DNA from: Caldisericia bacterium
Lineage (GTDB): Bacteria; Caldisericota; Caldisericia; JAAYUI01
Assembly: GCA_040768585.1 (NCBI GenBank)
Contig: JAXGMQ010000001.1
Coordinates: 746,392-810,391, forward strand
Direction: 5' to 3'
DNA: 64,000 bases
The notes under the pieces are model-generated. The model ran no database searches, was not told where the DNA came from, and was given only the letters and a program-made list of their open reading frames with translations. Below are positions 10,501 to 45,972 of this stretch, in pieces; within the stretch, counting starts at the first letter, position 1; each line of letters starts with the position of its first letter. The position numbers were made by a program, and so were the translations under genes.

Positions 10501-11147
10501 ATCTTCTGCACCTGGTTTGATAGACCCAATCCTTCAAAAGGATTTTCACCAGTCAACACCTCGTACATGAGCATGCCCAGGGAATACAAGTCTGAGCGAA
10601 TATCTAGGGTATAGCCTATCACGTGTTCTGGTGACATATATGGCACCGTCCCCACCAATGCGTCTTGCCTTGCAATCCTTGCGCCTCTGGCGCAATCAAA
10701 CGCAATTGAGAAATCAACAAGCACAGGTTTTCCTTCATCAATGAGGATGTTATCAGGCTTCAAGTCCCTATGAACAATCGACAGACTATTCAACTCTGAG
10801 AGTGCGTCTGCAATGTCTATGAAAATCTTTGTGAATAGATCAAACGAGAACTGAGAGTTGGCAAACCACTCGATGAGCGGTACCCCAGACACATACTCCA
10901 TCGCACACCAATACAGCCCACCCGCTTCGTCGAATCCACTCCCTATGAACTCTACAACGTTATCGTGTCTTATCCTGGAGAGTAAATCGACCTCCTTAAC
11001 AAAGCGTTCTCTGGCTCTCTCGTTTGGGGGTGTAACAACCTTGACCGCCACCTTCCTGCCGGTGGCGTTATCGTGCGCAAGGTAAACCTTACCCATACCA
11101 CCAACGCCCAACACCTTCTCAACGAAAAACCGCGAAGCTATAAACAT
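7554..11147 (-). CDS. Ser/Thr protein kinase fused to P-loop NTPase and TPR-like helical repeats
   Basis: N-terminal Hanks kinase motifs (GVGGMGKVY, AVK, HRDLKPDNILI, DFS). These are followed by FVGR...GSKGFGKSR (Walker A, AAA_16/STAND-like) and a ~700-aa helical repeat region. Confidence 0.85.
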   Translation of the reverse strand: MFIASRFFVEKVLGVGGMGKVYLAHDNATGRKVAVKVVTPPNERARERFVKEVDLLSRIRHDNVVEFIGSGFDEAGGLYWCAMEYVSGVPLIEWFANSQFSFDLFTKIFIDIADALSELNSLSIVHRDLKPDNILIDEGKPVLVDFSIAFDCARGARIARQDALVGTVPYMSPEHVIGYTLDIRSDLYSLGMLMYEVLTGENPFEGLGLSNQVQKILNEPLPRPGVKNPDISPFIEKIVMKLLEKNPEDRFQTPEELKKELVRCNKNGELQDLWNPTPLRDEGIARVPFVGRSAEFERVLRSLSQIGLGKGQIIEILGSKGFGKSRMLDEIKIEVLAQGGRYFSCKPRDEYLARPAVGYLLDCLAESELQMDTKSWDNHANFIRDLSPKFAAKLEIPAKESRLFEQVDCSDFICDILLSVLPDIPAVFAFDEPMDKLTIDVVNKLTKKIKNRKTLVCVTGESNILDLSEVSPYVTKIELGCLSKADIFAMAESFLKRPPEEGELNWIERLSNGEPQRIVRLLDILKTGADSVIIDDTEDSLKQHYTLILDGVSREAALILNILAVVGRPVNYKFLRPVSRLFNYEFEQTIKNLQLSGLIKEEMHDGVILVESATSHLQEVVLDRLDDMRHAKIAADVASTLELQSNGCQDTDLNITIARQYLKSGNHNKAAYFYDKISAFIMHHEKALKILSEIEPFLDLVTDVNVYCRLLCRLKELYFNLGDTEKNLLLTKRILRDIKKGAIPGGLLPSVYASLFTFSFIDDCEGMDLESLREAERYFDKVEDRSLKTRFLSVKARYLMQLDRHEEAEECLFAYLDLVDKEDNPLMYMRGLSMFATVQCSLGNHDIGLNYFEKALQYVVKCPTKKEEIDLLAQVATTQFHMGKYREASKTCEKALNLTDDCDTDSLPTQLLLIYAHAIRDVGEFDKYQKHLLYLNELIYKVPLDKYVIGWVELLLDHHCLSGCSQLAVDLVEFVKQKCLELSNERWFVKVLMCELELHNYIEDKSELAKLVNRLQKFFPAPDKTSRRLFDAKMFTKLATVNINGNEMVKARRNLDRVTELVQNLNDDDATIELLDAEIYYLRMFHSNGHKTRIFGVKHDYSKWKLTVSKVNSAISILLMSELKYAEKRIRVTENVIALTRDRIAQDDNLDAFEKRRLYNFAVEQMESLFGFYRKTGYTYRKENILEINNSLSLLVK

Positions 11148-11189: not shown

Positions 11190-12191
11190 TCAATAAAAGA
11201 GTTTTGCGTACTCAAACAGTTTTGGGTCTGGTTTTCTGCGTTCTCTAGTGGCTGCATCCATGTCGGCGGGTACGATGAGTCCCGCCTTGAGCGCTGTCAT
11301 CTTGCCGACCTCACCACGCTTTAGCAACTCGACCGCCTCATAGCCAAATCTTGTTGCAAGAGTCCTGTCTGTGACGGTTGGAGACCCACCACGCTGGAGG
11401 TGACCAAGGACTGTGTATCTCGAATCGATATTGGCTCTCTTCTCAATCTCCGTTGCCAGCTTTGCACCGACTCCCGTCTGAGGGGAATCACCTGGTGTGA
11501 AAGGCATTCCATCGACTTGTGCGCAATCTGTTATCACGATTATTGAAAAGTTTTTGCCTGCGGCGTTTCTGTGCTCGATGTGACGAACAACATCATCAAA
11601 CGAAACGTGAATCTCAGGCGTGATAATGTAGTCAGCTCCACCGGCCAAACCACCCATCAGGGCAATCCAACCAGAACCACCGCCCATCACCTCTACAACC
11701 ATGACGCGGTGGTGCGATGATGCCGTGGTGTGCAGCCTATCAAGTGATTCGGTCACAAAATTAGAGGCAGAATCAAAACCGATGCAAGATTCTGTGCAAG
11801 AGACATCATTGTCAATCGTCGCTGGGATGCCAACCGTTGCATAACCCGCCTCGTTGAGCCTTGAGGCGATGCGAAGCGAGGCAAATCCACCAATGACAAC
11901 AAGAGATGTCAGTGAGTACTTTTTGAAATTCTCCTGGAATGCTTCAAACTCGCTCTCGGATGTGAAGGGATCCCACCTGCCGGAACCGAGGATTGAACCG
12001 CCAAGATAGAGGATACCTGAGACGTGTCTTTTGTGCATGACAAAGACGTCGTCTTTGATGAGACCTTTCCAGCCATTTCTGACGCCAACGACCTCATAAC
12101 CGAGATCGAGACCCTTCCTGACGACAGCTCTAATTGCAGCGTTGAGACCTGGGCAATCTGCTCCTGATGTGACGACTCCGATTCTTCTCAT
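11190..12191 (-). CDS. 6-phosphofructokinase family protein (phosphoryl donor uncertain)
   Basis: PFK motifs TSGADCPGLNAAIRAVV, PATIDNDV and LGHLQRGGSP. AGGAGG RBS. Several ATP-site residues are atypical (see findings). Confidence 0.85.
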   Translation of the reverse strand: MRRIGVVTSGADCPGLNAAIRAVVRKGLDLGYEVVGVRNGWKGLIKDDVFVMHKRHVSGILYLGGSILGSGRWDPFTSESEFEAFQENFKKYSLTSLVVIGGFASLRIASRLNEAGYATVGIPATIDNDVSCTESCIGFDSASNFVTESLDRLHTTASSHHRVMVVEVMGGGSGWIALMGGLAGGADYIITPEIHVSFDDVVRHIEHRNAAGKNFSIIVITDCAQVDGMPFTPGDSPQTGVGAKLATEIEKRANIDSRYTVLGHLQRGGSPTVTDRTLATRFGYEAVELLKRGEVGKMTALKAGLIVPADMDAATRERRKPDPKLFEYAKLFY

Positions 12192-12202
12192 TTATAATCC
12201 TC

Positions 12203-14239
12203 CTATCCTGCAATCATATTAATGATAAACGGGATAAACAGCAATGATATAACTGACATGAGTTTTATCAAAATATTAATCGATGGGCCAGTGGTATCCT
12301 TGAGCGGGTCACCAACCGTGTCCCCGACTACTGTTGCCTTGTGCTCATCTGAACCTTTGCCAGCGCCTTTTGGATCTGCTTCAATGAACTTCTTAGCGTT
12401 ATCCCACGCACCACCAGCGTTTGCCATAAAGATTGCAAGCAATACACCTGTAAGGGTAGCTCCTGCCAACATTCCACCAAGCGCTTCTTTGCCATGACCT
12501 CCAAAAACGAAGTACACGGCAAAAGGTACCGTAACCATGAGAACCGACGGCACAACCATCTGCTTGAGGGCACCACTCGTCGCAATTGAGACAGTTCTCT
12601 TGTAGTCTGGGTCTGCTTTGCCAGACAGCAATCCAACGGTTTCCTTGAATTGTCTCCTGACCTCAGCGACGACAAGGCTGGCTGATGAACCAACAGCGCT
12701 CATCGTCATAGCAGAAAAGAGAGCGGGCATCGCAACACCCACGAATCCACCAGCAAGAACATAGGGGTTGAGGAAGTTGAGTTCTGTCAGCCCAACCGCC
12801 TGAGTGTAAGCAACAAAGAGCGCAAGCGCGGTGAGGGCTGCTGAGCCAATCGCAAACCCTTTGCCCATGGCAGCCGTTGTGTTGCCTAGTGAATCCAGAT
12901 TGTCGGTTATCTCTCTGACACTCTCTGGTAATCCACCCATCTGAGCGATACCACCAGCGTTATCGGCTATCGGGCCATAGGCATCCACCGCGAGGGTTGC
13001 CGCGAGGGTTGAGAGCATACCAACACCAGCCAAGGCAATTCCGAAGATGCCGGCAGCAGAGAAGGCGACAACGATTGCACCAGCGATAATAAGAATCGGC
13101 AAAACAGCTGATTCCATACCAACACCAAGTCCGGCAATAATGTTAGTGGCGGGTCCACCTTTACTCTGACTGGCAATATATCTGATAGGCTTTGCCGAGG
13201 TGTAGTATGTTGTGACAATACCAATGGCAATACCAGCGATCAATCCACCTGCTGTTGCCATGAAATAACTTGGCTCTCCCCATTCTGTGAAGTTTGCCAG
13301 GTAGTACTGCGCCGCAAGCGAGAGAGCTCCCGCAATATACGTCCCAAGTTGAAGTCCCAGAGACGGTTTTACCTTGCCCGTCTTGGCTCCAAATTTGACA
13401 ACCAGTATACCAATTATTGATGAAAGCAGACCGAGAGCAGCAAGCAGGAGAATGAAGATAACCTTGTCTGCATCAAAACCAGTTGCCACAGAGGCAAGCA
13501 CAAGCGAGGATACAATCGCGCCAACATAAGATTCATAAAGATCAGCGCCCATACCAGCGACATCGCCAACGTTATCACCGACGTTATCAGCAATGACTGC
13601 GGGATTTCTTGGGTCATCCTCTGGGATGCCGGCTTCAACCTTACCCACAAGGTCAGCGCCTACATCAGCAGCCTTTGTGAAGATGCCACCACCGACTCTG
13701 GCAAAAAGAGCAACAAACGAAGCGCCGACGGAGAATCCAACAAGGATTCCTGTCATCTCCGCAACACTGATATCAGGAATATTAGAGAATATGGTGAAGA
13801 AACCCGTGACACCAATAATTCCAAGCGATGAGACAACGAGACCCATGACAGCTCCGCCCGAGTACGCCATCTCAAGGGCTTTTCCTTCACCTTGTTTGAA
13901 AGCTGCCTGGCTCGTGCGGTTGTTGGCAAGAGTTGCTATGTTCATACCAATAAAACCTGCAAGTATTGAGAACATGGCTCCGCACAAGAATGCAAGGAGG
14001 GCCCAGCCTCCGATTATAAGATAAATGCCTATCGCAAACGGAACAGCGGCAACAAGCATGTACTGGTATTCTTTGACAAGAAAGGCGAAAGCTCCGGAAC
14101 GGATGGCTCCTGCTATCTTTCTGAGTTTCCCATCCCCAGGGTCACCTTTTGCAATCCCTACTCCCAGCGCCAACGCAGTGAGAAGCCCAAGCACACCAAC
14201 ACCAATCGGCACCAAGTATTGAAACACGAGACCCCGCAC
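12203..14239 (-). CDS. hppA: Membrane-bound ion-translocating pyrophosphatase, K+-dependent type
   Basis: 678-aa polytopic protein with [32 protein letters not shown] and [10 protein letters not shown] motifs. GTG start at 14239. Confidence 0.95.
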
Positions 14240-31139: not shown

Positions 31140-31721
31140 ATGCTCAAATTTTCTCCCGGCACAATAGGCGTTGACGAGGCCGGAAGAGGCCCTCTGGCAG
31201 GTCCGGTTGTTGTTTGTGCTTGCTTGCTTTTTCAACCAATCGAGGGACTCAACGACTCAAAAAAACTGACCGAGAAGAAACGGATGGAGCTTATGCCGTT
31301 GATTCTCCGCAACTCGGTCTCGGAGATTGCGATAGCCAGTTCAGAATCAATTGATGAATCGGACATCCTGTCCTGCACACTCTCCTGTATGGAAAGGGCA
31401 ATCAGAAACCTTACTTGTAGAACCGATAGGTTTGAGCAAATCCTAGTCGATGGTAATTTTACCCCAAAATCCTATAAAAACATTGCTGAATCCGTCGTAA
31501 AGGGGGACTCGCTCTATCAATCAATCGCAGCAGCCTCTATTGTGGCAAAAGTTACGAGAGATTATATAATGACTCTGTACGACAGCTTGTATCCAGAGTA
31601 TGGTTTCAAAGAAAACAAGGGATACGGGACATCTTACCACACCGAGGCTATAAAAAGGGTGGGTTTGTCCGAAATACACAGAAGGAGTTTCAGGCTACAT
31701 GGTGATAATAAACAAAAGTGA
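31140..31721 (+). CDS. rnhB: Ribonuclease HII
   Basis: GVDEAGRGPLAGPVV, DSKKL and ASIVAKV motifs. Confidence 0.9.
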   Translation: MLKFSPGTIGVDEAGRGPLAGPVVVCACLLFQPIEGLNDSKKLTEKKRMELMPLILRNSVSEIAIASSESIDESDILSCTLSCMERAIRNLTCRTDRFEQILVDGNFTPKSYKNIAESVVKGDSLYQSIAAASIVAKVTRDYIMTLYDSLYPEYGFKENKGYGTSYHTEAIKRVGLSEIHRRSFRLHGDNKQK

Positions 31722-32433
31722 CTTTGTAAGAAAAAAGATATTTGTTGAAATACTTCTCATAATTGCTGGCATTATCCTTATCATCTTCAGCCTGGGAGCG
31801 ATAGCATTTGGACTGAGTTCCTCTAACCCAATATGGCTCATCATCCTATCCGGTATGATACTCTACATCTTTGGTGGCATACTGCTTGTCAATCGGGCAA
31901 GCGAAATCTCCATCTGGAGAGCCGGACTCTCTGGGCAAAAGGTTGTACCTGAGAAACTTGTCGGGTTGTCCAACGACTACATCCTCATCAACAACGTTTC
32001 CCTCAAAGGCAGGAACTGCGACATTGACCACATAATCATTGGGCCCGACGCGCTTTTTGCTATCGAAAGCAAACACTACAACGGAGAAATATTTGGTCAG
32101 GGTGAGGAGTGGAGCTATCTTAAACGCGGCAGAGCTGGTGGCTTTTACAGGGGACATATTGGTAACCCCTCAAGACAGATAAAACGCTCAACCTGGGAGC
32201 TCAAGGAAATGATTGAGGAAGAACTTGAGAAGAAGGGGTACGCTGATTCGAAGGTCTGGATTGAGCCGCTCGTTGTTTTTACCCACCCAAAGACAGCGCT
32301 CCGAATAACTGACTCTCCAATTCCAGCCATTCATGTAAACGACCTCATCGCCTTCCTTCAAGATTTCAAAGCGAAGGAAGAACTGTCAGAAAAAGTTCGG
32401 CAGGAGATAGTTGAACTCATCAAGGCGCAGTAA
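31699..32433 (+). CDS. NERD domain membrane protein
   Basis: Two N-terminal TM helices, then IDHIIIGPDALFAIESKHYNGEI (NERD nuclease-related signature). Confidence 0.7.
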   Translation: MVIINKSDFVRKKIFVEILLIIAGIILIIFSLGAIAFGLSSSNPIWLIILSGMILYIFGGILLVNRASEISIWRAGLSGQKVVPEKLVGLSNDYILINNVSLKGRNCDIDHIIIGPDALFAIESKHYNGEIFGQGEEWSYLKRGRAGGFYRGHIGNPSRQIKRSTWELKEMIEEELEKKGYADSKVWIEPLVVFTHPKTALRITDSPIPAIHVNDLIAFLQDFKAKEELSEKVRQEIVELIKAQ

Positions 32434-32776
32434 AACCTCAAATACCCATAAAGGGAGACTCGGAGAGGACATATCCTGCAAACACCTTCAGTCTCGCGGC
32501 TTCGTGGTTCAAGAAAGAAATCACAAGACCAGGGAGGGTGAGATTGACGTTATCGCGTCAAACGACTCCCTGATTCTGTTTGTCGAGGTTAAACGCAGGA
32601 CGAGTAAGACATTTGGTTTGCCCATAGAATCATTACCAAAGAGGCGCATTGAAAGACTCTTCAACGCAAGCCTTCTCTACCTTGAACAGAATCCTCAATT
32701 TCAAAAACTCGAACGAGGGTACCTGCTGCACGCAATCTATGGCGAGAAACTTACCGAGATTGAGATAACCTCATGA
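32411..32776 (+). CDS. yraN: YraN family (UPF0102) endonuclease-like protein
   Basis: GRLGEDISCKHLQSRGF.V..RN......GEIDVIA.....ILFVEVKRR. The start codon is uncertain (TTG at 32411 and no in-frame ATG). Confidence 0.75.
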   Translation: MNSSRRSKTSNTHKGRLGEDISCKHLQSRGFVVQERNHKTREGEIDVIASNDSLILFVEVKRRTSKTFGLPIESLPKRRIERLFNASLLYLEQNPQFQKLERGYLLHAIYGEKLTEIEITS

Positions 32777-40951: not shown

Positions 40952-41566
40952 GTGTCACTGAATCTGCCAGCAAACAGAATGGAGCTTTTCAAGCGGAAGC
41001 GTTCGCTTGCTCAAGCAACAAAGGGCTTGAAGCTCCTTCGGGACAAGCTTGAGGCTGTGATGGCTGAGTTTTTGGTCATCGCTCGTGAATATAAAACCGA
41101 GAAAAAGAAACTCATTAAGAAACTCACCATCTCCCAGGCCAGGTTTGCGCTTGCTGCTGCATCAACCCCATTCCTTGAATTTGGAGGCAAAACCACCTCT
41201 GGCAAACTTCTTGTAGCCAAGGGGCAAAAACGCGTAATGACGCTCGTTTTGCCAAAACTCGATATTGCAGAGTTCGAGCCAGACACAGCACTGCCACCGC
41301 AGGCGGCAACCGCTGACGCGCTAGATTCTCTTGTGTCATACCGTGAGCTTGTCCCTATTGTTATCAAGGTGGCGGAGCTTGAGACCTCGATGAGAGAGCT
41401 GGCACTTGAGATTCAACGTACCCGCCGAAGGGTGAACGCATTAGAACACGTCATGGTGCCAAGGCTCGAAGGGGATGTCCGTTCAATCCAGTCCAAACTC
41501 GACGAAGCTGAGAGGGCGAACATGTCGAGACTGCAGAGGGTGAAGGCGATATTGGAGAATAAATAG
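40952..41566 (+). CDS. ntpD: V/A-type ATPase subunit D
   Basis: GTG start. PANRMELFKRKRSLAQATKGLKLLRDK and RRRVNALEHVMVPRL are canonical D-subunit motifs. Confidence 0.9.
   Translation: MSLNLPANRMELFKRKRSLAQATKGLKLLRDKLEAVMAEFLVIAREYKTEKKKLIKKLTISQARFALAAASTPFLEFGGKTTSGKLLVAKGQKRVMTLVLPKLDIAEFEPDTALPPQAATADALDSLVSYRELVPIVIKVAELETSMRELALEIQRTRRRVNALEHVMVPRLEGDVRSIQSKLDEAERANMSRLQRVKAILENK
41543..41566 (+). repeat. Direct repeat copy 1 (last 24 nt of ntpD)
   Basis: AAGGCGATATTGGAGAATAAATAG. An identical copy lies at 42266-42289. Confidence 0.9.
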
Positions 41567-41631
41567 ATTCAATTCGTTTTGGGTCTAAGTTTTTGATTCA
41601 AGAAGTATGGCTCTTATTTTGAGGAGGTGAC

Positions 41632-42198
41632 ATGGTTTTAATTGAGGGAACTTTGCAAAATGTTTTTATGAGGTATGTGGTAGGTTTCGTTCTATTGGGT
41701 GTTATCCTCGTGGCTCTTCCAATATTATCATCATTCCTGACCCCCTTCTCGCCTGTTGATCCGGTTGTACCCATAGCAATGTCATTTGCCTTTCTTTTGT
41801 TATTCGTATTTATCTTGTATTTACCTATCTCATATTTCCTGTTCAGATTCAAATTGACTTATCTTCTTATTGATGGAAAACCAACAATCATCGTGAAAAC
41901 GCCAACAACGCAGCGACAATTCGGTGCCAGCTCAAACTACCATATCTCATTCACAACCTTAAGCACATTCTATGGCTATAGAGTCACTTATTTGAAGCTA
42001 GACATCTGGGATTCATGGAGCAGGAAAACATTCTTTGAGCGTTTGCCACCAGGAATTGAGATAAAGAACCTCTCAGAATACACACAAGGTGGAGGATATT
42101 TGACAGCTCAGTTAGTTTCAGTTGGTAGACACCCGGGGATTGTGTGGAGGATATGCAAGGAGCTTGAGAAGAATTCTGGTGTAAAAAAGCTTCCGTAG
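41632..42198 (+). CDS. 2-TM membrane protein of unknown function (membrane-flanked PH-like architecture?)
   Basis: GAGGAGG RBS. Two N-terminal TM helices, then FRFKLTYLLIDGKPTIIVKTP. The paralog is at 43691..44383. Confidence 0.7.
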   Translation: MVLIEGTLQNVFMRYVVGFVLLGVILVALPILSSFLTPFSPVDPVVPIAMSFAFLLLFVFILYLPISYFLFRFKLTYLLIDGKPTIIVKTPTTQRQFGASSNYHISFTTLSTFYGYRVTYLKLDIWDSWSRKTFFERLPPGIEIKNLSEYTQGGGYLTAQLVSVGRHPGIVWRICKELEKNSGVKKLP

Positions 42199-42241
42199 GA
42201 ATCTCTAGTAAAATGAGCACGATAAACACGTGATGACATAA

Positions 42242-42289
42242 AAGCTCAACGAAGTCGAGAAGACAAAGGCGATATTGGAGAATAAATAG
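42242..42289 (+). pseudogene. Degenerate duplicate of the ntpD 3' end (includes direct repeat copy 2)
   Basis: Reads KLNEVEKTKAILENK*, versus the authentic KLDEAERANMSRLQRVKAILENK*. The last 24 nt are identical to 41543-41566. Confidence 0.8.
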
Positions 42290-42325
42290 TAATTGTTTAT
42301 ACTGTAGACACTGGGAGGTGTTGAT

Positions 42326-43528
42326 GTGCATTTGACAGGCAAACAAGTTGGAGAATACAGTAAAACTATCTATTTGTTAAAATACTATATCAAGGTGCTG
42401 AATAGATTGACTCCATTTAAGTTATCCATCGAAGATGATAAATTTCTAGAACAAAAAACAATAATTCGAACAAGGTGCGACTATACAGAAATTCTTCTTC
42501 ATATTAGGAGAATTATTAGAAAGTTTACTACGCACTTTTATCCAATAAAACCAATAACTGAAATAGTGAAAAAATACAGATCATTTGAATCTAATGGGAA
42601 TGTAAAAGAATTTATGCTACCTTTGGGATTCTTCAGAGATAGTTTTAAGCCAATTGTAACATTCAGTGATGATCCAAATACACCTTGTGATGTCGAAGTG
42701 ACCTTATCTTTTGGTTGGAAGATGGAAGCAAATCAAAATGGGATAATGGAATCAGATACTTTGAATTTAAGGATACTTGCTCCGGAAAAAATTGCCCTTG
42801 ATGAAGCCGGTTTTTTATATAAGAAAATTGAGATGTTCCAATATACCCACAAAAATTTTCTTGAAAAAATCAGGACTTATGGGAATAATACAGGAAATGA
42901 AAATCCTAATATTTATAATGAAATCATTAGAGAATATCAAAAATTGGGTCATTTGATCATGATTTATTCAAATAGTTTCATCCTCAGAATTCACTCATTC
43001 CTTGATAAGTTCCTAAACAGAGTAATCAATACACAATACTCAAAAATTCAAATACCTTCTGGCGTATCATTGGATGAATTTATGCGTAAGAATTTTGATT
43101 CAAGACTAGACGCAGTATTGTGGCAGCCTACTCAGATTGATACAAATAATAATCAACTGTATATAGATTTTGACAAATATAAAAATCTGAGAAATAAAAT
43201 AACTCACGGTCTTAAACTTAGCGAAATGGATACTATACTTCTAGAATATAATGATCTGGAATCTTTGAATATTACTTACATTAAAATTGCAAGAATGTTG
43301 TGGAAGCATTATTACGCCGAAGAATATCCACAATATCTCCAATATCTTGGTAGAGATTACTCTGACAAAGTCTTCAACCTCGACACCGAAGTTATCTCTA
43401 TGCTTGACTATGCCATGAGAGTAAAAGGTAAGATGATCACCAGGATGAATAACAAACTTAGAGAATATGGATATCAGATATCAAGAATCCCTATCGCAAA
43501 CGATGACCAAAAACCACAACTTACCTAG
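42326..43528 (+). CDS. AT-rich orphan protein with Rx4H (HEPN-like) motif
   Basis: 400 aa with a GTG start and a GGAGG RBS 7 nt upstream. Sampled 60-nt lines are roughly 22-32% G+C, versus ~50% in the ntp genes. The motif FDKYKNLRNKITHG has its R codon at 43190 and its H codon at 43205. Confidence 0.65.
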   Translation: MHLTGKQVGEYSKTIYLLKYYIKVLNRLTPFKLSIEDDKFLEQKTIIRTRCDYTEILLHIRRIIRKFTTHFYPIKPITEIVKKYRSFESNGNVKEFMLPLGFFRDSFKPIVTFSDDPNTPCDVEVTLSFGWKMEANQNGIMESDTLNLRILAPEKIALDEAGFLYKKIEMFQYTHKNFLEKIRTYGNNTGNENPNIYNEIIREYQKLGHLIMIYSNSFILRIHSFLDKFLNRVINTQYSKIQIPSGVSLDEFMRKNFDSRLDAVLWQPTQIDTNNNQLYIDFDKYKNLRNKITHGLKLSEMDTILLEYNDLESLNITYIKIARMLWKHYYAEEYPQYLQYLGRDYSDKVFNLDTEVISMLDYAMRVKGKMITRMNNKLREYGYQISRIPIANDDQKPQLT

Positions 43529-43690
43529 TACATTCCATGAAATAAACTCTCCTCACACCGACAATATCCACCAACAAACAGTGCAAACATAATCATCCAA
43601 ATTCTCGCCATTCCCCATACTCCAGTTCTTTGATTAACCCTGCCCACGTGCTACAATGCACCAAAAGAATCAAATGGATATAGAGCTTTC

Positions 43691-44383
43691 GTGGATGAAA
43701 TCACAACAATAATTACAGGCAGATCGGATAAGATCACATGCACGTCGAAGGGGTGCGCAATCACCGGCTTCATTGTGCTCATGGCAATTATTATATTTGC
43801 TGTCGGTTCCTTTAGACACCTGAGTGCGAAAACCCTCTCCGTTTATTTGTTTCCTGCCATTATCATCATCTCTGTTTTACTAGCCTCCGTTCTAATTGTG
43901 AACTCTGTGCGAAATCGACGCACTCTCACCCTCAAATATGTCGACGGTAAACCTGTAATATCAGTTGCGCGTGCGAACAACAGCATCATCTTCACCTGGC
44001 CATTCGAGTTTAGAGCAAGATTATTTGATTTGCAGACAATCTTTCGGCATCAGTACGGCCCAAACGGCTATATATATCTTGAGATAGCGCAGGACAATAA
44101 TCGCTTGAAGGTAACTGAAAAGCTCCAATATGGCTGCCCTATGCCAACTGACATTGAGTTCGAGGGGATTGACGAGGAACAGCTTGCGCTTTTTGATAAA
44201 CCAATCGACGCTCAGTCTACCGCAATCTATCTGATATTTAAAAGTCTTTATGACTACAAAAATCCCCAAAAACGTGCCAACGAGGCAAAAGACAAAAATC
44301 GGGGATCAAATCACTTTCGATACGATGAGTCACAAATCTTCTCCAGCGATGATCGTGAAATTATCGATCCGTTCCTCGACTAG
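43691..44383 (+). CDS. 2-TM membrane protein, paralog of 41632..42198
   Basis: GTG start. Two TM helices, then RRTLTLKYVDGKPVISVARANN, which matches the LTYLLIDGKPTIIVKTP segment of the paralog. Confidence 0.65.
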   Translation: MDEITTIITGRSDKITCTSKGCAITGFIVLMAIIIFAVGSFRHLSAKTLSVYLFPAIIIISVLLASVLIVNSVRNRRTLTLKYVDGKPVISVARANNSIIFTWPFEFRARLFDLQTIFRHQYGPNGYIYLEIAQDNNRLKVTEKLQYGCPMPTDIEFEGIDEEQLALFDKPIDAQSTAIYLIFKSLYDYKNPQKRANEAKDKNRGSNHFRYDESQIFSSDDREIIDPFLD

Positions 44384-44529
44384 CATTAATTAGTAAATAT
44401 TCCCATTTATATCTGCACTGTAACATCTATTGGTGATAATACTGTTATATCCTATATTATTTAACTCTACTAGCTCTCGTAGTTTACATCTATTGTAATG
44501 TGTTAAACATTCTTAATACATTTGTGTCA

Positions 44530-44846
44530 GAGTTTGTGAGAAAGGAGACAGACATCAAAAAGATAACAGGCGCGACTCCAGACCACCTCTCAAGGCGGGA
44601 ATGTTCTTCGACCCAGAGGGTCGTCAGCTAGAGGAAGTCATGAGATGGAGGGGTTGAAGGAGTCAACCTCAGATGACACAACTCAATCTGTTGGTGAGAG
44701 TTTCGAAGAACCACCGAGATCCACCCAGGTACCGGGTCAGCAACATACAAGGAACTAGGGAGGTACAGGTGGATGAAGTCGAAAAAACGGCGTCAGTAAC
44801 TGCACACAAGAGGTGAGACATAGAGCTTAATCTTGTGAGTGTTTTT
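44530..44846 (+). other. Candidate structured RNA and/or 47-aa small ORF inside a 700-bp ORF-free gap
   Basis: The core has higher G+C than its flanks. Hairpins at 44609-44623 and 44652-44668. A small ORF at 44673..44816 has AAGGAG 10 nt upstream. The stem CACAAGA/TCTTGTG (44805-44837) is followed by a T-rich run. Confidence 0.25.
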
Positions 44847-45082
44847 CAAAGTTTTTCTTTTTGCATCGGCAGTACAAGGAAATATCGGCTGTAAATATTT
44901 GGAAGACAACAGATGTGGCAATAGGGTCAAACTATTGTAAGTTTTCAAAAACAAGGCCTTATTGCCGAAACTGCGGGGATTGTTAGTTTTGGTTGCTTGC
45001 GGTTTTTTGCTCCCTTTTCCGTGACACCAGAACGGGTCACACAAAAACAATCCCCCACCCTGATTAAAAACCTAAAAAAATG

Positions 45083-45907
45083 CTATCTCCAGAGCCCATG
45101 TTCCACCAGGTGATTTCTCAGTCTTCGCCTTGAGTAGTTGATGAAATCAGATAATTCATCGGTTGGCAAGTCAAGGTTATCAGCACTCTTATAATCGAGT
45201 GACGCAAGTTCAATAAGGTGATGATATCTTCTGTCAATATTCTCACTTGCCCAATTTGCGCTCTCAAGCTTAGACAAGATTAGTCTTCTCTCAACGAATG
45301 CGATAATTCTGCATGTATTTAGAACTGAATATATCGGAAATTCCTCAGACTGCTCTCCCAACCAAATAAAATCCTGCAATATAGAGTCATCAACATCAAA
45401 ATCCGGCACATCTGGCAATGTATCATCGTCTAAACCAAACAGTCTCATCCCTCGAGTTTTGCAGACCCTAAAATGAACCGCCAGGTCGGAGTCAACTGGA
45501 TCTTTACCCCACAATTCCTCGACTATCGAATCTGGTTTTTCATTGACGAGTTTAGTCAACCTTTCACGGTAGCTGGAACTGTAGTGAAAATCGAACCTCG
45601 CTGGGTGTTTCCAGGGAGAGATATCACGGAGATTGACAAAACTCAACTCAATCGGTCGAGGGTTCCCCGAAAATCTCAACGTCAACTTGGATATCTTAAG
45701 AACACCCTCTCGTGACAACGGACTCTTAGTCACAAAAAGCAAGTCCACATCACTCTTGGACTCGTTGAAACATCCAAGCGAAAGGGAACCATGAAGCCAG
45801 ACTGACGAAAGGTTATCCCCGAATAAACAGGAAACCACGCCCCCCACGAAACCACAAACCTGCTCCCTAACGGTCTTCGGACAGCTCTCCCCTAACACTA
45901 GATTCAT
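45083..45907 (-). CDS. Nucleotidyltransferase with DUF4111-like C-terminal domain (aminoglycoside adenylyltransferase-like)
   Basis: The N-terminal GSLSLGCFNESKSDVDLLFV motif (G[SG]-X-D-X-D polymerase-beta-type NTase) and the ~270-aa size match ANT(3'')/AadA-like proteins. Confidence 0.65.
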   Translation of the reverse strand: MNLVLGESCPKTVREQVCGFVGGVVSCLFGDNLSSVWLHGSLSLGCFNESKSDVDLLFVTKSPLSREGVLKISKLTLRFSGNPRPIELSFVNLRDISPWKHPARFDFHYSSSYRERLTKLVNEKPDSIVEELWGKDPVDSDLAVHFRVCKTRGMRLFGLDDDTLPDVPDFDVDDSILQDFIWLGEQSEEFPIYSVLNTCRIIAFVERRLILSKLESANWASENIDRRYHHLIELASLDYKSADNLDLPTDELSDFINYSRRRLRNHLVEHGLWR

Positions 45908-45972
45908 TTAAAACCCACCGGGCGGCGAGGGAATCTCTCTATGAGCAAACCCTCACCATAACTAATACACAA

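Follow-up and report, generated by a model that had tools for sequence, protein, structure and literature searches.

We have analysed a 64-kb window of a Caldisericia bacterium genome (the window is the whole stretch of 64,000 nucleotides (nt)), and in it the region at 41567–45972, which lies between atpD, the gene for the D subunit of a V/A-type ATPase, and the genes DUF4332 and SAHH. The explanation that fits best overall, with about an even chance of being correct, is that this region is an AT-rich accessory island at a recombination hotspot, and that its 400-amino-acid (aa) orphan protein is a divergent HEPN-type ribonuclease (RNase) with a role in conflict. The firmest new facts are a syntenic ortholog of the 400-aa gene, relics of the atpD 3' end, and a disrupted allele of the gene. 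The HEPN assignment itself is reasonable but unproven.

A variable island behind atpD

Three open reading frames (ORFs), all on the plus strand, follow immediately 3' of atpD at the positions given in the original prediction. Two of them encode proteins with two transmembrane helices (2TM-A and 2TM-B) and flank the 400-aa gene, which carries an arginine–histidine motif (R-x4-H). The features of the locus are as follows.

41543–41566, plus strand: 3' end of atpD, the final 24 nt with the stop codon (repeat copy 1)
41632–42198, plus strand: 2TM-A, 188 aa; two N-terminal transmembrane helices and a cytoplasmic β-rich domain (predicted)
42241–42289, plus strand: decayed relic of the atpD 3' end, with a perfect 24-nt copy at 42266–42289
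42326–43528, plus strand: gene of the 400-aa orphan protein, 31.7% G+C, GTG start
43152–43153, no strand: breakpoint of the alternative haplotype, within codon 276
43190–43207, plus strand: codons of R289-N-K-I-T-H294, the conserved R-[ND]-x3-H
43691–44383, plus strand: 2TM-B, 230 aa; two transmembrane helices, a DGKP strand and an acidic tail with a PF motif (IIDPFLD)
44384–45082, no strand: 699-nt gap with no recognisable gene, part of the variable island
45083–45907, minus strand: AadA/ANT(9)-like nucleotidyltransferase (NTase), 274 aa, with NTP_transf_2 and AadA_C domains

The 400-aa protein has one true relative. An exhaustive phmmer search of 1.84 billion representative sequences recovered P0004, a protein of 337 aa (E=4e-10, ~28–31% identity), and a word-indexed search of 5.8 billion proteins returned only the 400-aa protein itself; a profile built from the two sequences found no match beyond the pair. 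No relatives were found in viral contigs or in phage or plasmid collections. P0004 is encoded on a 2.23-Mb contig of a related genome, L086, in the order ntp operon, atpD, P0004, six tandem 2-TM genes, DUF4332 (minus strand) and SAHH (minus strand). Its gene is therefore syntenic with the 400-aa gene, and it is equally AT-rich. An hmmsearch run over every ORF of the 91 fetched loci confines the R-x4-H and 2-TM families to the window species, L086 and a third genome, L006, with the R-x4-H protein missing from L006; in these loci neither family occurs in the Caldisericia relatives with 57% AtpD identity. Five metagenome loci retrieved with AtpD as an anchor also held no homologs of the island genes. 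Between the species, AtpB, AtpD, DUF4332 and SAHH are 73–85% identical, whereas the R-x4-H protein reaches ~28–31% and the 2-TM proteins do not exceed 40%.

The second line of evidence on the history of the locus comes from duplicated atpD tails. The final 24 nt of atpD (41543–41566) are repeated perfectly at 42266–42289, and no other 24-mer of the window is exactly repeated. Upstream of the 24-mer the flank of the relic has decayed, with a 24–27-nt deletion, and it reads KLNEVEK-TKAILENK before the stop, compared with KLDEAERANMSRLQRVKAILENK before the stop in atpD. The relic aligns to atpD with a score of 50, against 16.9 ± 2.4 for shuffled sequences. The two copies bracket a 723-nt segment that carries 2TM-A. 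Since the relic lies just upstream of the 400-aa gene, that gene formerly abutted atpD, as P0004 does, and the 2TM-A segment was inserted later. We also noted a promoter-like site at 42276–42303 (TGGAGA, 16-nt spacer, TATACT) that overlaps the perfect part of the relic, upstream of the 400-aa gene. The overlap might be why the 24 nt have stayed intact. Such sites in the region are no more frequent than in shuffled sequence.

An analogous scar is found in L006. Here an 87-nt copy of the atpD tail with 93% identity (12002–12088; live tail at 10528–10614) stands after an inserted DUF1611 gene and before the first 2-TM gene. This relic is closer to the atpD tail of L086 (90%) than the live tail of L006 is (87%), which suggests that the functional tail arrived with donor DNA; the scar would fit a homology-anchored capture of donor DNA. 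AtpB, AtpD, DUF4332 and SAHH are 82–89% identical between L006 and L086, and 73–85% identical between the window species and either of the two, making the window species the outgroup to L006 and L086. The presence of the R-x4-H gene in the window species and in L086 then implies that it was probably present in the common ancestor and was lost in L006. The ancestral order would have been atpD, the R-x4-H gene, an array of 2-TM paralogs and DUF4332. On this reconstruction the 400-aa gene is likely an old resident beside atpD, 2TM-A probably came later on the 723-nt segment, duplicating the atpD tail, and the NTase would have been added separately. The whole region is a lineage-restricted and fast-evolving accessory island, at a recurrent recombination hotspot of a small uncultured Caldisericia clade.

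The base composition agrees in part with the original prediction. The 400-aa ORF has 31.7% G+C (29.9% at third codon positions), compared with 51% for atpA, atpB and atpD and 44.7% for the window, and among the 1-kb bins of the 64 kb the one at 42–43 kb, which contains sequence of this ORF, has the highest A+T content. The flanking genes, for which ~47–50% G+C had been estimated, measure only 40.4% (2TM-A) and 43.6% (2TM-B). The island genes are AT-rich in all three species, so their low G+C is a long-standing property of the island and no sign of recent import. The 400-aa ORF has a strong Shine-Dalgarno sequence (GGGAGGTG) 5 nt upstream of its GTG, and the 2TM-A gene has a strong one as well (GAGGAGGTG); 2TM-B starts with GTG, and its Shine-Dalgarno sequence is not clear. 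A terminator scan found no plus-strand terminator-like site between atpD and the island, and the counts from promoter and terminator scans of the region were not above those of shuffled sequences.

The third firm observation is that the 400-aa gene segregates in two states. In its 90% cluster, a 293-aa form occurs on 12 contigs and full-length forms on 8. The short form matches the window protein through residue 275 and then reads KAMFPLGTKNRILEEKWN before a stop codon. The 12 contigs are identical to the window DNA up to position 43152; beyond it they carry unrelated sequence with its own ribosome-binding site and ORF start (MELTIEIPDD...), the new ORF beginning MELTIEIPDDTNIDMKKYGPYDIEKEEEFDI (examples are L092 8826–8966, L093 and L094). 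The disruption lies 13 codons before R289 and removes the R-x4-H motif. Apart from it, all contigs of the window species are 100% identical across the island. The disrupted contigs come from independent assemblies, and all of them end 140, 128 or 122 nt past the breakpoint. Ends at about k−1 (for example MEGAHIT at k141) indicate that the contigs run into a multi-copy repeat, which makes a mobile-element insertion likely, and hence the truncation probably reflects insertion of a multi-copy element. Neither the window nor the fetched loci nor the viral contigs contain a source for the joined sequence. Both alleles occur together in some metagenomes, among them ERZ27257410 and JGI 3300010350. 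The cut allele is found on about half of the contigs, and the 400-aa gene is dispensable; it may also be costly enough to have been knocked out by a repeat element in a large share of the population.

Resemblance of the 400-aa protein to HEPN domains

The 400-aa protein consists of a β-containing N-terminal domain (residues ~60–150), an all-α, HEPN-like domain (~153–330) and a C-terminal part of 70 residues. As the original prediction stated, it belongs to no recognised family: scans of all three full-length proteins against Pfam, NCBIfam, PADLOC and PHROGs gave no match, and its N-terminal and C-terminal parts scanned separately gave only noise. The predicted R289-x4-H294 motif is present (FDKYKNLRNKITHG), and it is conserved as LRNKITH in the 400-aa protein and LRDNVTH in P0004 (R226-DNVT-H231). 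There are four Rx4-6H occurrences in the 400-aa protein, and R289–H294 is the only one conserved in P0004. The residue after the arginine is N290 in the 400-aa protein and D in P0004, both of the polar N/D/H class; in HEPN motifs a polar N, D or H directly follows the arginine (PMC3710099). The blocks conserved between the two proteins are PEKIALD-AG, RIHSFLD and LR[ND]xxTH. By chance, R-x4-H appears in 37% of shuffles of the 400-aa protein and R[NDH]x3H in 6.4%. What rises above chance is the conservation of the motif in the sole homolog together with weak profile matches specific to HEPN, not the presence of the motif.

These profile matches arise solely when the C-terminal region is scanned by itself. 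A comparison of residues 200–342 with 24,736 Pfam families gave two matches, HEPN_Cthe2314 (E=0.0018, 18.7 bits) and HEPN_RiboL-PSP (E=0.0022, 18.4 bits), and no others. Both matches survive shifted boundaries and vanish upon substitution of alanine for R289 and H294; reversed or shuffled controls never show them. In the domain-only scan with PADLOC models, a HEPN model, RTasHEPN, matches weakly at the motif region (E=0.02–0.05, noise-level), and GajB reaches E=0.004, likewise noise-level.

A structural model of residues 145–345, made from the two-sequence alignment, is all-α, with a predicted local distance difference test (pLDDT) score of 72.8 and a predicted template-modelling (pTM) score of 0.72; a full-length, single-sequence AlphaFold2 (AF2) model of the protein reached a pLDDT of only 36.5 and was unusable. 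In the domain model, DSSP assigns helices at 153–188, 194–240, 274–293 and 298–330, with an insert at 241–273. Residues R289 to T293 close the helix 274–293, and H294 is the first residue of the following loop. [quoted passage not shown] The helix order and the motif placement of the modelled domain fit this topology. HEPN domains have a conserved acidic residue in helix 2 near the active site. The second long helix of the model contains the RIHSFLD block with D227, which is invariant in the two sequences; its context is D-x4-R, not E-x3-[KR].

Several results weigh against the HEPN assignment and the conflict role built on it. The profile scores stay below the gathering cutoffs (18.7–18.9 bits against 27.1 for PF18730, and 17.1–18.4 against 28.4 for PF18735). 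The noise floor is close, because an irrelevant family reaches E=0.015 on a control, so that the margin of HEPN over noise is about tenfold. P0004 matches no HEPN profile, and because the family has two members the conservation statistics are thin. The PADLOC defence models match meaningfully neither the three full-length proteins nor the domain in isolation. A Foldseek search with the domain model, a check that the original prediction had itself proposed, gave no match below E=0.1 in PDB or BFVD and hence no significant HEPN neighbour: the best PDB matches are designed helical bundles (E=0.14), and chains of the HEPN protein HepT (7bxo_F, 6m6w_D and 8xeh_D) come at E 0.63–2.7 with template-modelling scores of 0.25–0.38. 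Sequence and profile searches of PDB with the 400-aa protein were empty or gave noise. In addition, 2-TM genes persist in L006 and in the disrupted haplotype, where no intact R-x4-H gene accompanies them.

The HEPN-like reading of the original prediction therefore stands in its motif, now seen to be conserved, in profile matches that are weak and of HEPN families only, and in the all-α model; it finds no backing in scores above cutoff or in a significant structural match. Weighing both sides, we put the assignment of the 400-aa protein to HEPN at even or slightly better. The protein and P0004 probably form a new, tiny HEPN-like family in a variable island. If so, the 400-aa protein would most likely be a very divergent, metal-independent RNase of HEPN type, whose fused N-terminal domain may sense or regulate, and its role would most likely be that of a conflict, defence or toxin-type effector.

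The 2-TM proteins and the wider hotspot

The two proteins flanking the 400-aa gene are paralogs, as had been predicted. Pairwise BLAST between 2TM-A and 2TM-B is weak (E=0.01), yet a hidden Markov model (HMM) built from eight L006 and L086 homologs, and thus leaving the window pair out, picks from the 550 ORFs of the window just 2TM-A (E=3e-13) and 2TM-B (E=6e-12). The family has ten members, the window pair together with two neighbouring genes in L006 and a tandem array of six in L086; in the word-indexed search of 5.8 billion proteins, the 230-aa 2TM-B found only itself. Two of the tandem L086 genes, the first and second (11205–12400), encode proteins with 40% identity (E=1e-40), far closer than any other pair, which points to a comparatively recent duplication inside the array.

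The ten proteins have in common a MKKIEG-type start, two transmembrane helices, a DGKP strand, the motifs PF.Y, YFKL.I.D and FFE, and a helix with P.P..VWEIY..LE. Hydropathy bears out the two predicted N-terminal helices in both 2TM-A and 2TM-B. Lysine and arginine are enriched before the first helix and after the second, which suggests that both termini face the cytoplasm and that the soluble domain is probably cytoplasmic. An acidic C-terminal tail with a PF motif is present in 8 of the 10 (for example IIDPFLD, DSPFEE and ESPFVEDE; that of 2TM-B is encoded at 44363–44383) and is missing from 2TM-A and from the last L086 copy. This tail could be a docking motif. The original prediction had likened the layout of these proteins to membrane-flanked bacterial PH (bPH) domains of the YdbS/YdbT type. 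We found no sequence support for this: neither the ten full-length proteins nor their soluble domains gave an HMM match to bPH at E up to 10, no other Pfam family matched them, and a PDB profile search with the family was empty. A literature search also turned up no paper that treats HEPN together with bPH.

The 2-TM proteins would be anchored in the membrane and possibly serve as partners of the RNase, as regulators or immunity factors able to exist without it; their cytoplasmic domains or PF tails may regulate or neutralise the 400-aa protein. Co-occurrence, which the original prediction had put forward as a check, gives a divided answer. The R-x4-H gene does stand beside 2-TM genes in both genomes that have it, but the two represent a single inherited locus and are not independent evidence. 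The linkage pattern fits a toxin with dispensable partners and is equally compatible with mere co-residence, and a functional link between the R-x4-H gene and the 2-TM genes is, in our estimate, less likely than not.

Downstream of 2TM-B, the NTase begins after 699 nt, on the opposite strand as predicted, 1.55 kb from the 400-aa gene and convergent with it. Its match to the ANT_9 subfamily model (68 bits) is far below the cutoff. The gene is found at the locus in the window species only, not in the L086 or L006 islands, and it is a separate acquisition within the variable island. Searches of the 699-nt gap for relics of the two island families, for Rfam families and for similarity to relatives all came back empty. 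A patch at ~44560–44830 within the gap is richer in G+C, and some pipelines call a 47-aa ORF at 44673–44816.

Hotspot behaviour extends beyond the clade. In the Caldisericia loci L008 and L091, whose AtpD is 57% identical, the DNA downstream of atpD (L008 12587–19411, the same as L091 10130–16954) carries a type III restriction–modification system (ResIII helicase and N6_N4 methylase) and a pair of ImmA (Peptidase_M78) and DUF4411 genes. In L089 (11257–18897), with an AtpD near-identical to that of L008 and L091, the same place holds unrelated large unannotated proteins. On the other side of the ntp operon, genes for a NERD-domain protein and a UPF0102 (YraN-like) protein lie directly upstream in the window species and L086 alike (window ~31699–32776; L001 1–451; L086 420–1498).

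Alternative readings and known systems

A serious competitor to the HEPN reading is that the 400-aa protein is a fast-drifting, lineage-specific ORFan with a coincidental R-x4-H, in an island of weakly selected, AT-drifting hotspot DNA. We regard this as the less likely account, though far from negligible. The frequency of the motif in shuffles, HEPN matches that are below cutoff, depend on the motif and do not extend to P0004, and the want of a significant structural match all agree with it; so do the AT-richness and quick divergence, which fit relaxed selection, and the disruption of the gene in about half of the contigs, which shows it to be dispensable. It accounts poorly for an ORF that has stayed intact with conserved blocks while housekeeping proteins diverged by 15–27%, for the fact that only two HEPN families match among all those in Pfam with a third HEPN model (from PADLOC) at the same spot, and for a helix order and motif placement that fit HEPN. 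A comparable, minority share of belief goes to the view that the 2-TM array and the R-x4-H gene share the hotspot with no functional tie between them. The 2-TM proteins would then form a membrane family that diversifies on its own, for instance as envelope, exclusion or ATPase-associated factors expressed by read-through from the ntp operon. The 2-TM genes do occur without an intact R-x4-H gene, their copy number ranges from 2 to 6, they keep no fixed order with respect to the R-x4-H gene, and no plus-strand terminator-like site intervenes between atpD and the island. The adjacency of 2-TM genes to the R-x4-H gene in both genomes having the latter, and the narrow phyletic range and compositional bias common to the two families, speak for a connection, weakly since all come from one locus.

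The original prediction had offered two further readings, and neither fares well. That a foreign AT-rich gene recently inserted between two tandem host paralogs is already largely refuted, and we consider it improbable. The gene has the lowest G+C in the window, is an orphan in databases, and has no counterpart in the sister genome L006, whose two 2-TM genes directly adjoin each other. Its sole homolog, however, occupies the same locus in L086, beside atpD and equally AT-rich; the atpD-tail relic places the 400-aa gene against atpD before the 2TM-A segment came; the window repeat search found no repeats or scars flanking the gene itself; and nothing in the phage, plasmid and viral collections matches it. 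The proposed link to the NTase as a HEPN–nucleotidyltransferase toxin–antitoxin pair (type VII, HepT/MntA-like) is more improbable still, being contradicted by gene order and phyletic pattern. The HEPN-like motif and the NTase are indeed less than 1.6 kb apart, but the NTase, at 274 aa, is AadA/ANT(9)-like with its own AadA_C domain, lies on the opposite strand past 2TM-B and the gap, and is absent from L006 and from L086, which has the R-x4-H gene. Returning to the preferred explanation, its most specific form would be an undescribed Caldisericia conflict system, in which a divergent HEPN RNase effector is controlled or neutralised by 2-TM paralogs, perhaps via their PF tails, at an atpD-anchored hotspot that captures single genes. 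In this full form we think it unlikely.

If the HEPN assignment is true, the 400-aa protein and P0004 are the two known members of a new and extremely divergent HEPN family with an extra N-terminal domain, in Caldisericota, a phylum with almost no experimental genetics, and this family may be tied to a new, tandemly diversifying family of membrane proteins. If it is wrong, the locus is an ordinary fast-evolving ORFan island. Whatever the function, the locus is a clean natural case of island dynamics, in which the atpD 3' end served two lineages as a recombination anchor and left datable relics, and a candidate toxic gene segregates in wild populations as intact and insertion-disrupted alleles.

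Compared with the HEPN RNases of PF18730 and PF18735, the 400-aa protein has the R-[N/D]-x3-H motif, in which a polar residue follows the arginine, an invariant acidic residue (D227) in the modelled helix 2, rapid evolution and residence in a variable island. In the model, its motif closes a helix with the histidine opening the next loop, in an all-α domain of ~180 residues that is built of two long helical hairpins, a variable insert separating helix 2 from helix 3. It differs in scoring ~18.5 bits against cutoffs of 27–28, in the failure of P0004 to match, in the lack of a significant Foldseek match, in its extra N-terminal domain, and in having D-x4-R instead of the usual E-x3-[KR]. [quoted passage not shown] With the type VII HepT/MntA systems it has in common a HEPN-like motif with a nucleotidyltransferase nearby. 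It lacks an adjacent, co-directional minimal nucleotidyltransferase, and the NTase of the island is AadA-like, convergent and not conserved with the gene.

The 2-TM proteins resemble bPH proteins (YdbS/YdbT-type, PF03703) in having two N-terminal transmembrane helices followed by a domain of ~100–120 aa, in which segments resembling β-strands come first and a conserved helix (VWEIYxxLE) last. They differ in that none of the ten gives an HMM signal to any bPH family, and an acidic C-terminal PF tail is, to our knowledge, no feature of bPH proteins. The locus as a whole has no integrase, attachment-site structure or mobile-element genes, and its segments are short (0.7–1.5 kb), unlike integration systems. 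It nonetheless resembles the integration of islands behind conserved genes, at their 3' ends, or illegitimate recombination facilitated by homology, in that single-gene segments after atpD are bracketed by a duplicated atpD tail, and this in two lineages: the window species has a perfect 24-nt copy with a decayed flank, and L006 has one of 87 nt at 93%.

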